A stretch of 64,000 nt of DNA from Candidatus Micrarchaeota archaeon (GCA_043821365.1 JBDRCX010000006.1:704001-768000); one strand, 5' to 3'. Counted from the stretch's first letter, positions 3,613-61,207 are shown. Notes: generated by a model not told the origin, from the letters alone. Numbers and translations: made by a program.

Positions 3613-3637
3613 CCTACCTTTTTGGTAAAAAGGTAGG
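3613..3637. repeat. T5-N3-A5 palindromic element
   Basis: CCTACC-TTTTT-GGT-AAAAA-GGTAGG followed by TCCAAAAAC. Confidence 0.75.
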
Positions 3638-3706
3638 TCCAAAAACGTATTTGCTAAAAAGTAAACATTAAATCCTGTTCGTATAACTATTCCTTTGGTG
3701 ATACTC

Positions 3707-13450: not shown

Positions 13451-13470
13451 GTCCTTTTTAGAAAAAGGAC
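13451..13470. repeat. T5/A5 palindromic element
   Basis: GTCC-TTTTT-AG-AAAAA-GGAC followed by CAAAAA. Confidence 0.7.
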
Positions 13471-13557
13471 CAAAAATCTGGTTTTGTTAAGTTTTCCTCT
13501 TCGAGGAAAAATGATTTAACTAAAATCCATCGGATTTTTCATCAACCAGTTTTTTAT

Positions 13558-13581
13558 GTCACTTTTTTCCAAAAAAGTGAC
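13558..13581. repeat. T/A palindromic element abutting the tRNA-Pro 3' end
   Basis: GTCAC-TTTTTT-CC-AAAAAA-GTGAC. Confidence 0.7.
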
Positions 13582-13836
13582 TGGGGCCGCTGAGATATGC
13601 TCCTCCCAACCGCAGGAATTTGTAGTTGAGAAGTTTGAATTTCTTGCGCTTTTTGGTAAAAAGCGCCCAAAAACTTAACTTGCTAATTTTTGCTCGCAAA
13701 GCTCGCAAAAATAGTGTTGCCACCAAAAACCCGATAGGGTTTTTCAACAAAGAATTTTGGAGCGCCTTTTTTCAAAAGGCGCACTCAGATAACAAGCACC
13801 CCAAGCTTGCAGGATACCAGGTTACCTCACGGCCCC
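13582..13836 (-). tRNA. tRNA-Pro(GGG) with two T-arm introns (about 13640-13783 at 53/54 and 13597-13634 at 58/59)
   Basis: Acceptor GGGGCCG/CGGCCCC-A; anticodon stem CAAGC/GCTTG with loop TTGGGGT; T-stem CTGAG/CTCAG. T-loop TTCAAAT is rebuilt from a 5-nt exon at 13635-13639, with BHB-like motifs at both junctions. Confidence 0.85.
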
Positions 13837-16379: not shown

Positions 16380-16443
16380 TTTTATTCACCTCATCGAAAT
16401 TCCTATTTCGATTAAGTAAAAATGTACATGCATTTTTACACTG

Positions 16444-16463
16444 CGCTTTTTAGAAAAAAGCGC
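16444..16463. repeat. T5-N3-A5 palindromic element, followed by a GTGGGG/CCCCAC hairpin at 16491-16506
   Basis: GCGC-TTTTT-AGA-AAAAA-GCGC followed by GCAAAAA. Confidence 0.7.
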
Positions 16464-16519
16464 GCAAAAATTTTTTATTTATTTTGGGGTGTGGGGTCTC
16501 CCCCACAAACAAACCAAAA

Positions 16520-17242
16520 TCACCTGTATGATTTTTGGAACCTGGCCCTTGCCTTTGGTCCACGGAACTTCTTTGGTTCAACCCGTCTTGTATCATCAAC
16601 TATTAATGAACGATCGATTGTAATGAATTTTTCCTTAAGGTTCATCTCATCAAAGTATGCTACTAGTGCGTTTGCTATTGCTGTTCTTGCTGCTTGTGCT
16701 TGGCCCATCACTCCACCGCCATTAACATTGACTGCAATGTCTATGTTATTTGCTTCTGGACCAACGTACTTTATTGGCTCTCTTATTATTTCTCTTATGT
16801 AAGAATTGTTAATTGATTCAATGTTTCTGCTGTTCAATCGTATTACTCCTTTGCCTTTAGTTATTGTTGCACGTGCTACGCTCTCTTTTCTTTTTCCTCT
16901 TGTAACAAAAACTTTTGTTTCTATTTTTTTCGATGGTTTCTTTCTTTTCTTTTTTGGACTTGGTTTTTTCTCTTCTGTTTTGTGTTCGTGAGTTTCTTTT
17001 TTCTCTTCGTGTTTATGTTCTACATGGGTGTGTGCCTTTTTCTCAGGTACTTCGTGTTTATGTTCTGTGTGTTTGTGCTCTTCTTTCTTTTCATGCTCCT
17101 CATGCTTTTTTTCATGAACATGTTTATGTTCTACATGAGTGTGCGCTTCCTTCTTTTCATGAGCTTCTTTTTTCTCATGTTTAGTGGTGTGAGTTCCTTC
17201 CTTCTTTGTTCTTTTCTTTTTTCCTTCTTTAGTCATGATCAT
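16520..17242 (-). CDS. rps9: 30S ribosomal protein S9 with about 100-aa His/Glu/Lys-rich N-terminal extension
   Basis: Core GKRKESVARA, GGGVMGQAQA, KARARFQKSYR; start overlaps the L13 stop (TGATG). Confidence 0.95.
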   Translation of the reverse strand: MIMTKEGKKKRTKKEGTHTTKHEKKEAHEKKEAHTHVEHKHVHEKKHEEHEKKEEHKHTEHKHEVPEKKAHTHVEHKHEEKKETHEHKTEEKKPSPKKKRKKPSKKIETKVFVTRGKRKESVARATITKGKGVIRLNSRNIESINNSYIREIIREPIKYVGPEANNIDIAVNVNGGGVMGQAQAARTAIANALVAYFDEMNLKEKFITIDRSLIVDDTRRVEPKKFRGPKARARFQKSYR

Positions 17243-30055: not shown

Positions 30056-30170
30056 TGGACACGGAGGGATTTGAACCCCCAGCCTTCCACAGTTTGGCAA
30101 ACTAGTTTTGATCAAACTTTTACTAAAAGTTTGGCGCCAAGCGGATGCTCTACCGTTGAGCTACGTGCCC
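30056..30170 (-). tRNA. tRNA-Ala(GGC) with 43-nt 37/38 intron (30092-30134)
   Basis: GGGCACG/CGTGTCC-A with G3:U70; T-loop TTCAAAT; strict BHB (TTGG/CCAA central helix, CAAAC/GTTTG outer helix). Confidence 0.93.
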
Positions 30171-30172
30171 GT

Positions 30173-30195
30173 GCAACTTTTTAGTAAAAAGTTGC
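30173..30195. repeat. T5-N3-A5 palindromic element 2 nt upstream of tRNA-Ala
   Basis: GCAAC-TTTTT-AGT-AAAAA-GTTGC followed by TCAAAAA. Confidence 0.72.
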
Positions 30196-30210
30196 TCAAA
30201 AATAGTCAAT

Positions 30211-45738: not shown

Positions 45739-45784
45739 TTATCTTGAACGTTTCGACGTTCAAGGACATGTCCAAAAATAGGAA
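45715..45784. repeat. 16-bp direct repeat flanking a hairpin
   Basis: TGTCCAAAAATAGGAA at 45715-45730 and 45769-45784 around CTTGAACG-TTTCGA-CGTTCAAG. Confidence 0.75.
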
Positions 45785-49770: not shown

Positions 49771-49998
49771 GCCCCTGTAGCGCAGTCCGCTTTTTAGGAA
49801 AAAGCTTGGCAAAAACTGGTTGTTGTTTTTGTAGTTTTCTAATAAAAAGCAGGTGTTAAGGTAGCGCGCGTCCTTGGTATCGCACCTTTTTTCAAAAAGG
49901 TGCGCCAAAAACTTTTGTAAATAGTGACCCAGTTTTGGGCCGCCTTTTACCAAAAGGCGGAGAGGACGAGGCCGCGAGTTCAATTCTCGCCGGGGGCT
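49771..49998 (+). tRNA. tRNA-Thr(GGT) with D-loop intron (about 49787-49859) and 83-nt anticodon-loop insert (49880-49962)
   Basis: GCCCCTG/CGGGGGC-T73; D-stem GCGC/GCGC; anticodon stem CGTCC/GGACG; T-arm GCGAG-TTCAATT-CTCGC. Confidence 0.88.
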
Positions 49999-50009
49999 TC
50001 TTATTGTTT

Positions 50010-50029
50010 GTGGAAACCACGGTTTCCAC
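50010..50029. repeat. GTGGAAAC palindrome, copy 2, just downstream of tRNA-Thr
   Basis: GTGGAAACC-AC-GGTTTCCAC; matches 3181-3199. Confidence 0.7.
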
Positions 50030-50101
50030 ACCTTTCGTTATCCTTTGGCTAGCACCCTCAGATCGTCTCTAATCATTTATGGCTATTTAGCTATATTTAT
50101 A

Positions 50102-61007: not shown

Positions 61008-61207
61008 CGCCCCAACCGCGATTTGAACGCGGACTACAACCTTTCCTCCCCGAACCTTTTACAATCTTGAGGAAAACTATATTAAAAGGTCCGATCCAAA
61101 ACAAATTATCAAAAACAATCATCGTTTTACGACAATAGGTTCCAGTTCCATTCTTCCTAAAAACGGGGTCGCAGGGTCGTGTCATATCCAGGTTAGACTA
61201 TTGGAGC
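61008..61207 (-). tRNA. tRNA-Arg(GCG) with 126-nt 37/38 intron (61043-61168)
   Basis: GCTCCAA/TTGGGGC-G73; D-loop with A20; anticodon stem CGACC/GGTTG; T-arm CCGCG-TTCAAAT-CGCGG; BHB with one central mismatch. Confidence 0.88.

Follow-up and report, generated by a model that had tools for sequence, protein, structure and literature searches.

A palindromic cassette family at the splice sites of tRNA introns in a Candidatus Micrarchaeota genome

Short tailed palindromes lie inside and beside the interrupted tRNA genes of a 64,000-nucleotide stretch of DNA from a Candidatus Micrarchaeota archaeon (GCA_043821365.1, JBDRCX010000006.1:704001-768000; hereafter "the window"). They belong to a dispersed family of "cassettes" that is best read, at a probability of roughly 60%, as a modular intron-building unit, copied among genes for RNAs that the splicing endonuclease processes and inherited thereafter. 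The observations give direct support to the family itself, to its orientation rule, to its position at splice sites, to differences between species in the presence and number of copies, and to an insertion in the 23S rRNA gene. The source genome, termed G000, is a metagenome-assembled genome (MAG) of 1.2 Mb in six contigs, with 36% G+C and 87% completeness, in which the window occupies positions 704001-768000 of contig C6; other G numbers denote compared genomes, which are congeners unless stated otherwise.

The cassette is a unit of about 30-35 nt with the layout clamp, T run, AGG, A run, complementary clamp and CCAAAAAC, or, more generally, a variable clamp, T4-6, an AGG-like triloop, A4-6, the complementary clamp and a (C)CAAAAAC tail. 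The clamp is the sole part that varies freely, and it retains its self-complementarity. Forward copies have the hairpin first and the tail, (C/T)CAAAA(A)C, after it, with purine-rich loops (AGG, AGA, AGT, GGA); reverse copies carry GTTTT(T)GR before the hairpin, and it is in the copies with GTTTTTGG on the 5' side of the hairpin that the loops are complementary to the forward ones. Since loop and tail are kept in both orientations relative to the RNA, the family likeness argues for common descent of the DNA and not for an RNA sequence requirement.

Searches of the whole genome set the family apart from chance. There are 428 perfect hairpins (stem of at least 8, loop of 2-6) in the 1.2 Mb, among which the inner 5' arm is TTTT in 61 and the mirror AAAA in 5. 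When one mismatch is permitted the search returns 74 hairpins, 46-51 of them with a CAAAA or TTTTG tail, as compared with 21 (one tailed) in the reversed genome and 12-27 (0-2 tailed) in five simulated first-order Markov genomes; some 50 oriented, tailed copies thus stand against 0-2 in control sequences. A looser pattern matches G000 86 times, versus 11 for a reversed-pattern control, and finds between 2 and 128 copies in the congeners; outside the genus, counts in the order stay at background in most genera and clearly exceed it in a few. Matches of 91-97% to a CCGCC subfamily occur at many loci in each of the 31 searched genomes of the genus. An earlier note on this DNA had listed 11 palindromes as a dispersed family conserved in structure rather than in sequence. 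All 11 are present with the anatomy that it described, the single correction being a shift of one start from 16444 to 16443, and the excess of tailed copies over controls bears out the family. Among them the copy at 49789 is decayed, with a clamp of just 2-3 bp at a place where congeners carry a perfect GCGC clamp.

The distribution of the copies depends on finding the tRNA genes, which is difficult in this genome. The majority of its tRNA genes are interrupted, as follows from the detector counts: ARAGORN at default settings finds few (8 genome-wide and none in the window), whereas ARAGORN with an anticodon-loop intron allowed and Rfam find more (27 and 23 genome-wide, with one Rfam match in the window). 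ARAGORN at a low threshold gave 139 calls, mostly spurious, which were not used, and a loose scan for 5' signatures was set aside as noisy; loci were instead defined by an acceptor/T-arm finder together with ortholog comparison. Four tRNA genes, each interrupted, were located in the window (Pro-GGG, Ala-GGC, Thr-GGT and Arg-GCG), and cassette-bearing introns account for the failure of standard finders to detect most tRNAs in these genomes. With tRNA loci from detectors only (37 loci, 5.4 kb), 23 of 61 copies are inside loci and 7 more within 150 nt (30/61 in total). When acceptor pairing is used to extend the set to 46 loci (7.6 kb), the 51 tailed copies divide into 34 within tRNA genes, 4 no more than 150 nt away and 13 elsewhere, so that about 75% (38/51) are in or beside genes that account for 0.6% of the genome; tRNA genes carry the copies at about 40 times the density of other DNA outside open reading frames (ORFs), although some loci of the extended set were discovered by searching near cassettes, which biases the enrichment upward and leaves the lower, detector-only count as the unbiased figure. 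The DNA outside ORFs of at least 120 amino acids amounts to 118 kb. The genome-wide enrichment at tRNA loci that the earlier note proposed to check was accordingly found, and its tally in the window was accurate: six copies are intronic (two in Pro, one in Ala, three in Thr), two abut tRNA ends (13558 at the 3' end of Pro, 30173 at the 5' end of Ala), one lies 113 nt 3' of tRNA-Pro (about 110 had been claimed), and degenerate copies lie within the tRNA-Arg intron.

Orientation and register are strict. In the sense of the tRNA, introns have forward copies at their 5' side and reverse copies at their 3' side, and the tails point inward; forward-then-reverse pairs are found in nine genes and the opposite order in none. 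Copies in leaders are reverse and those in trailers forward, so the clamp side always abuts mature sequence and the tail faces away. At five intron sites (Pro 53/54, Thr D-loop, and the 37/38 introns of Thr, Ala and Val) the hairpin starts at intron base 2, and by this position it is the predicted inner helix of the bulge-helix-bulge (BHB) splicing motif. The splice sites are known from intron-free orthologs for Pro 53/54 (G006) and for both Thr introns (G008, G015, G138), and removal of the insert restores a standard gene, as judged against the intron-free tRNA-Thr of G008, the tRNA-Pro of G006 that lacks the 53/54 intron, and the 23S rRNA of eight relatives.

The junctions share one layout, in which the last six exon bases are four plus two, the intron begins with the third bulge base and the helix follows, while the intron itself ends in four exon-complementary bases plus two. 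A BHB with a 4-bp central helix and two 3-nt bulges can be written from the sequence at the Pro, Thr, Ala and 23S junctions, the central helix pairing UCUG with CAGA, CGGA or AAGA in Pro 53/54, GCGC with GUGU in the Thr D-loop, and UUGG with CCAA in Thr 37/38 and Ala 37/38; some junctions are relaxed, with one mismatch or without an outer helix. The Ala intron ends in CCAA plus AC, which pairs with U32-U33-G34-G35. In tRNA-Thr the tail CCAA plus AA forms, as had been noted earlier, a perfect BHB against U32-U33-G34-G35 (UUGG UA/U, hairpin, CCAA AA/A, with slashes at the cuts), although this BHB would excise just the first 31 of the 83 intron bases. The 5' arm of longer introns pairs with a distal A run and clamp immediately before the four exon-complementary bases. 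RNAfold places such a long-range helix in the doublet of Pro intron 1 (minimum free energy -55.3 kcal/mol, z -5.2) and in the Thr D-loop intron, where the 5' arm of the 49787 cassette pairs with a distal AAAAAGCAGG close to the 3' splice site, and folds the Thr 37/38 doublet into two local hairpins. The earlier view that inverted doublets fold into one long helix is thus right for Pro intron 1 and not for tRNA-Thr, in which the full doublet is in the 37/38 intron and the D-loop intron, to which it had been assigned, consists of one forward copy and a distal 3' arm only.

The enzyme that would act on these junctions is encoded in the genome as an epsilon2 EndA of 393 amino acids, a full-length match (E 3.5e-132) to the enzyme of Candidatus Micrarchaeum acidiphilum ARMAN-2, whose structure has been solved (PDB 4fz2; PMC3488258); an Rfam scan of the EndA locus gave no match. 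Passages of PMC3239211 report the activity and broad specificity of the epsilon2 enzyme. In the RNA, the clamp and U run would form the inner helix of the intron by pairing with their own 3' arm or with a distal A run and clamp. The helix would begin one base past the 5' cut or, in reverse copies, end a few bases before the 3' cut, and this placement would present the two 3-nt bulges to the broad-specificity endonuclease. The suggestion that the element spreads because the endonuclease removes it therefore needs amendment, in that the hairpin would be more than tolerated, being placed as the inner helix of splicing itself. In the DNA, cassettes and larger composites would be copied between different tRNAs, between intron positions and into 23S rRNA, occasionally landing in intergenic DNA, and established copies would be inherited, with the hairpin kept by compensatory change.

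That spread has occurred at the DNA level we infer from units shared between sites. BLAST within the genome links the introns of different tRNAs, and intergenic sites, through 28-43-nt units at 90-100% identity, and introns also resemble one another at 80-83% over 59-65 nt; the reverse cassette at 13646 and the intergenic copy at contig C6 209937-209967 agree at 31 of 31 nt. The inner module of the composite Pro intron is homologous to the inner part of the G015 tRNA-Thr 37/38 intron and to other G000 tRNA introns, the inner ~120 nt of the G000 Pro 53/54 intron matching the Thr intron at 74% over 121 nt. Similarly, the T-loop intron of G000 tRNA-Val matches the Pro 53/54 intron of G012 at 78% over 100 nt.

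The clearest individual event concerns the 23S rRNA gene (contig C4 15238-18605), which at 16865-16917 carries a 53-nt insert made of a hairpin, a tail and a distal arm. The insert is absent from all eight relatives compared, four of them congeners, and so is confined to G000 among nine genomes; its junctions fit CAUG AA/A ... CAUG AU/A. A 13-nt direct repeat at this insert was considered as a target-site duplication and rejected, as it is imperfect and is explained by the palindromic CAUG central helix. G156, of another genus, has a 50-nt T-run/A-run insert with a ACCAAAAAA tail at a different 23S site, also BHB-compatible, and both mini-inserts start with AGAAAC and end with TGAT. The same gene of G000 contains, at about 17240-17900 of contig C4 and hence outside the window, a large insert with an ORF bearing a LAGLIDADG motif (YIAGFVDGEGCF), which is probably an rRNA intron with a homing endonuclease; at roughly that position the congener G018 carries another large insert, which differs from it.

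Comparison of orthologous tRNA genes, which the earlier note had proposed, shows both change and inheritance: cassette number and intron presence vary among species, but much is vertical. tRNA-Pro(GGG) is syntenic in 13 species, and its 53/54 intron, at a position already published for ARMAN-2 in passages of PMC3239211, is present in 12 of the 13 and always opens with a forward hairpin, which is decayed in three species. The clamps differ by species and are matched on the other arm (AAAAC, AAGC, GAAC, GTTC, GCGC, GCGCC); such compensatory changes were read straight from the sequences. The Pro 53/54 intron is thus old and conserved in position together with its hairpin, under structural selection. 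Its content varies from a single cassette plus distal arm in most species to a doublet in G000 and G009 and a nested composite in G012; in a relative of ~90% identity represented by contigs of run X3, 34 nt replace window positions 13654-13773, giving a short version. In G000 the 53/54 intron is followed by a T-loop micro-exon, a second T-loop intron (58/59 or 59/60) and the 3' exon. The second intron (window 13590-13633, minus strand) is present in 13 of 13 congeners and has a near-invariant loop, ACAAAYACCUGCGG, on a strongly covarying stem, far more conservation than a spacer requires; a role as a functional RNA or as a binding site for protein is possible.

The introns of tRNA-Thr(GGT) are more labile. 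The gene, whose orthologs were obtained by direct DNA search (the adjoining ORF encodes a poorly conserved protein), is intron-free in G008, has the D-loop intron only in G138 and only a composite 37/38 intron of 180 nt in G015, and has both introns in G000, G117, G006, G004 and G007. By species the 37/38 intron holds a reverse single, a forward single, a doublet or a composite, and between orthologs CCGCC has become CCACC with the matching change on the opposite arm. The non-coding DNA of the nearest congeners is strongly diverged from that of G000.

Several points weigh against the modular, copied cassette, apart from the bias in the extended location count given above. The old Pro 53/54 intron, with six different and fully complementary clamps, fits evolution in place; two recent tRNA-Pro introns (37/38 in G009 and D-loop in G003) have no cassette; evident target-site duplications are lacking; the cassette has no mobilising enzyme linked to it; and removal of the inserts by splicing is inferred. 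For the earlier claim that the element generates new introns, the 23S insert absent from eight relatives and the homologous composites in different tRNAs are favorable, and the Pro gains without a cassette are not.

A stronger form of the modular reading, which we put forward tentatively, is that the cassette is a portable minimal intron, that is, a canonical intron turned into a self-propagating DNA module that seeds new introns in tRNA and rRNA. The hairpin and CCAA plus AA tail together provide an inner helix, a central-helix partner and a 3' bulge for a canonical 37/38 intron wherever U32-U33-G34-G35 is present, and the tRNAs with these bases have GGN anticodons (Thr-GGU, Ala-GGC, Pro-GGG). 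Because the tail exactly meets the need of such an intron, the match suggests that the family may descend from the canonical intron of a GGN-anticodon tRNA.

The rival that survives best, though we consider it rather unlikely, is a purely vertical module, whereby each intron evolved its own hairpin in place and nothing moved between sites. A strong inner helix would aid presentation of the BHB and insulate exon folding, and the family likeness would reflect AT-rich composition, shared constraints and duplication of tRNA paralogs. The retention of the Pro hairpin with compensated clamps in 12 of 13 congeners, the compensated CCGCC to CCACC change in tRNA-Thr, the strict rule of position and orientation, and the identity of some copies in paralogous tRNA-Ala genes all agree with it. 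It does not explain why loop (AGG or complement) and tail are conserved in both orientations, beyond any constraint at the RNA level, nor the approximately 13 tailed copies outside tRNA genes, one intron/intergenic pair being identical over 31 nt. The 23S insert unique to G000, one ~100-nt composite occurring in different tRNAs and positions by species, and a copy number of 2-128 inside a single genus likewise favor the copied cassette.

The form of the cassette resembles that of repetitive extragenic palindromic (REP) sequences and their inverted doublets (REPINs), or of non-autonomous elements derived from insertion sequences (IS) of the IS200/IS605 type, namely miniature inverted-repeat transposable elements (MITEs) or palindrome-associated transposable elements (PATEs), which would move as single-stranded DNA through a Y1 HUH transposase. 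The palindrome with a linear tail, the inverted doublets that can fold into a long hairpin and the variation of copy number between species are as this account would have them, and G000 does encode one Y1 transposase, on contig C3 (96623-97072). The earlier note was therefore right that the window holds no mobiliser, the gene being elsewhere in the genome, but its REP/RAYT-type mobilisation finds no support, since this sole Y1 gene is flanked by unrelated hairpins and no Y1 gene was detected in many cassette-rich congeners. None of the Y1 genes of G000 and seven congeners is flanked by the cassette; their flanks are GC-rich hairpins of IS200 type. Y1 was detected in only 8 of 40 congeners and in none of the cassette-rich G106, G094 and G085, these being incomplete MAGs. 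The ~75% of copies at tRNA genes are not extragenic, and the clamps vary among copies, unlike those of REP families. Membership in the REP/RAYT or IS200-MITE families was rejected on their defining feature, since neither the Y1 flanks nor the end hairpins of the IS match the cassette, real as the likeness of form is, and we regard this origin as improbable.

The IS200-type element that encodes the Y1 transposase spans C3 96446-97140 and lacks tnpB. Double hairpins resembling an IS200 left end (xGAACG..CGTTCx GGNCCAT AGAACG..) are also present at C6 58031-58078, 611157 and 769842, and one such copy has a tRNA gene 70-100 nt away. At C6 553800-554180, in the interval that separates tRNA-Gln from tRNA-Val(CAC), a gene with two introns, is a fragment of the TnpB C-terminus (PF07282, 89 bits); it stops ~40 nt before the tRNA and is only adjacent to tRNA-Val.

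A reading of the palindromes as ordinary terminators of transcription, or as bidirectional oligo-T signals that fell near tRNA genes by chance, is quite improbable. Every copy does have T4-6 on both strands, the T6 run of the 13558 palindrome occupies the place of the plain T5-6 terminator run 3' of tRNA-Pro in congeners, and six of seven intergenic copies between tandem genes are oriented to give two U runs in the transcript of the upstream gene, so that some extragenic copies may double as terminators. Two thirds of the copies, however, are inside tRNA genes, where efficient termination would abolish the tRNA; because this intronic majority lies on the sense strand of essential tRNA genes, its T5 runs cannot terminate efficiently. 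Some copies lie between divergently oriented ORFs, and the conserved loop, tail and splice-site register are left unaccounted for. Least probable of all is spread through RNA, by re-insertion of an excised intron through reversed cleavage and ligation, followed by reverse transcription and recombination: the concentration of copies in EndA-processed RNAs (tRNA, 23S rRNA) and the AGAAAC and TGAT ends shared by two independent 23S inserts, with four 3'-proximal bases complementary to the local exon, would suit it, but copies occur in both orientations and between divergent ORFs, no reverse transcriptase domain (RVT_1) was found in the 87%-complete genome (nor was DDE_Tnp_1), and to our knowledge no such re-insertion reaction has been described for archaeal EndA or RtcB.

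The cassettes and tRNA genes of the window are collected in Table 1.

Table 1. Cassettes, tRNA genes and their introns in the window (positions counted from its first base)
Feature	Position	Strand	Details
Intergenic cassette	3613..3646	+	11-bp hairpin, clamp CCTACC, tail TCCAAAAAC
Cassette downstream of tRNA-Pro	13451..13477	+	clamp GTCC, tail CAAAAAT
Tailless palindrome in tRNA-Pro trailer	13558..13581	.	GTCAC-T6-CC-A6-GTGAC, right after the discriminator base
tRNA-Pro(GGG)	13582..13836	-	exon 1, 13784-13836; 144-nt 53/54 intron (intron 1), 13640-13783
Reverse cassette (tRNA sense), 3' end of Pro intron 1	13646..13674	+	3' arm, AAGA plus AA, 3' splice site
Inner module of Pro composite intron	13675..13754	-	hairpins AAAAACCC..GGGTTTTT and ATTTTTGC..GCAAAAAT
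Forward cassette (tRNA sense), 5' end of Pro intron 1	13755..13782	-	tail TCCAAAA
Intergenic cassette	16443..16472	+	clamp GCGC, tail GCAAAAAT; between two minus-strand genes
tRNA-Ala(GGC)	30056..30170	-	canonical 43-nt intron, 30092-30134
Cassette hairpin in Ala intron	30113..30133		starts at intron base 2
Cassette in tRNA-Ala 5' leader	30173..30203	+	hairpin base 2 nt from tRNA position 1
tRNA-Thr(GGT)	49771..49998	+	D-loop intron, 73 nt, 49786-49858; 37/38 intron, 83 nt, 49880-49962
Decayed forward cassette, 5' end of Thr D-loop intron	49787..49816	+	tail TTGGCAAAAAC
Forward cassette, 5' end of Thr 37/38 intron	49881..49912	+	clamp CGCACC
Reverse cassette, 3' end of Thr 37/38 intron	49932..49960	-	GTTTTGGG plus CCGCC hairpin
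tRNA-Arg(GCG)	61009..61207	-	~126-nt anticodon-loop intron; degenerate T-run/A-run hairpins only

The 3613 cassette is separated by 772 nt from a plus-strand ORF on its upstream side and by 225 nt from a minus-strand ORF on its downstream side; a nearby tRNA was not detected, and inspection revealed no obvious BHB with its flanks. The 13451 cassette is just upstream of the Shine-Dalgarno sequence and start codon of a minus-strand ORF (13433 to 12786), and the 30173 cassette directs its tail away from tRNA-Ala. Read in the direction of its flanking genes, the 16443 cassette is in reverse orientation, giving two U runs; in contigs of runs X1 and X3 (a relative, from shared samples), 15 nt replace the 144-nt intergenic block 16380-16523 that holds this cassette and a GC-rich hairpin.

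Other hairpins were encountered in the same searches. At window 50009-50030 and at G000 C6 111855 and 401003 and C3 124509, hairpins TGTGGAACC..GGTTCCACA adjoin GGAGG, followed by AACAAAC and a start codon; these may be a structured element of the 5' untranslated region or a terminator of the opposite strand. A second hairpin family, CTTGAA(A/C)G..C(T/G)TTCAAG, often after TTGAC(T/A)GT, occurs at C6 327243, 368831, 768343, 72460 and 72514 and at window 45743-45764, and, together with GAAAATTC..GAATTTTC and ACGAT, makes up arrays directly upstream of several tRNA genes and also of protein genes. Finally, an intergenic array at C6 549091-549300 consists of four or five different hairpins that (C)CAAAAAACT linkers repeatedly join; no tRNA was detected there, an Rfam scan of C6 548800-549500 gave no match, and the array might be left over from an intron-rich gene or be a small RNA locus.

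The route by which endonuclease-spliced introns enter archaeal tRNA and rRNA genes has not been resolved; the Thermoproteales intron families come without a mechanism, and a 2026 census of Asgard tRNA introns, in the portion consulted, still calls the arrival route open. If the cassette is indeed a portable intron, archaeal introns would for the first time have a vehicle of arrival that is defined by sequence. In this genus the unit is small and recognisable and its register to the splice sites is fixed; there are also copies outside tRNA genes, a datable 23S insertion and large differences in copy number among close species, so that intron gain should be traceable event by event; it is also testable in vitro, as the structure of the endonuclease is already solved.

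Several known systems invite comparison. The bacterial REP/REPIN-RAYT system comprises short palindromes with a conserved tail and inverted doublets, in tens to hundreds of copies with lineage-specific expansion. The cassette is similar as a tailed palindrome in about 50 copies, with a forward-reverse pair in nine genes and, in the Pro doublet, one long helix. It differs in that no RAYT is flanked by the repeat, the stem sequence varies, the host is archaeal, and tRNA genes contain 34 of the 51 tailed copies, whereas REP sequences are mainly extragenic. BHB-type introns are also known from the rRNA genes of Thermoproteales and Desulfurococcales; the 53-nt 23S insert can likewise form BHB junctions, but it is a very short insert without an ORF, made of the tRNA-intron cassette and found in only one species among those compared. 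Another close parallel is ARMAN-2, which shares the endonuclease type, two T-loop introns in tRNA-Pro(GGG) and the interruption of most tRNAs, according to passages of PMC3239211. Those passages on ARMAN-2 make no mention of intron hairpins, palindromes or repeats and do not describe a cassette family or copies outside tRNAs.

The nearest parallel in kind is the "large-scale tRNA intron transposition" of the Thermoproteales (Fujishima et al. 2010, as cited in passages of PMC4090602, PMC3239211 and bioRxiv 10.64898/2026.10.13.758758). As far as those passages describe it, that system also has related introns across tRNA types and positions in a host with a broad-specificity splicing endonuclease. 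The Micrarchaeota family differs from it in being a ~30-nt palindrome and tail with a variable, self-complementary clamp, held in strict register and orientation to the splice sites; in having copies in tRNA leaders and trailers, 23S rRNA and intergenic DNA; and in its DPANN host with an epsilon2 enzyme. The kind of phenomenon is thus known from the Thermoproteales, and novelty lies in the palindromic unit as a defined entity, in the rule of its register and in its occurrence in the rRNA and intergenic DNA of a DPANN lineage.

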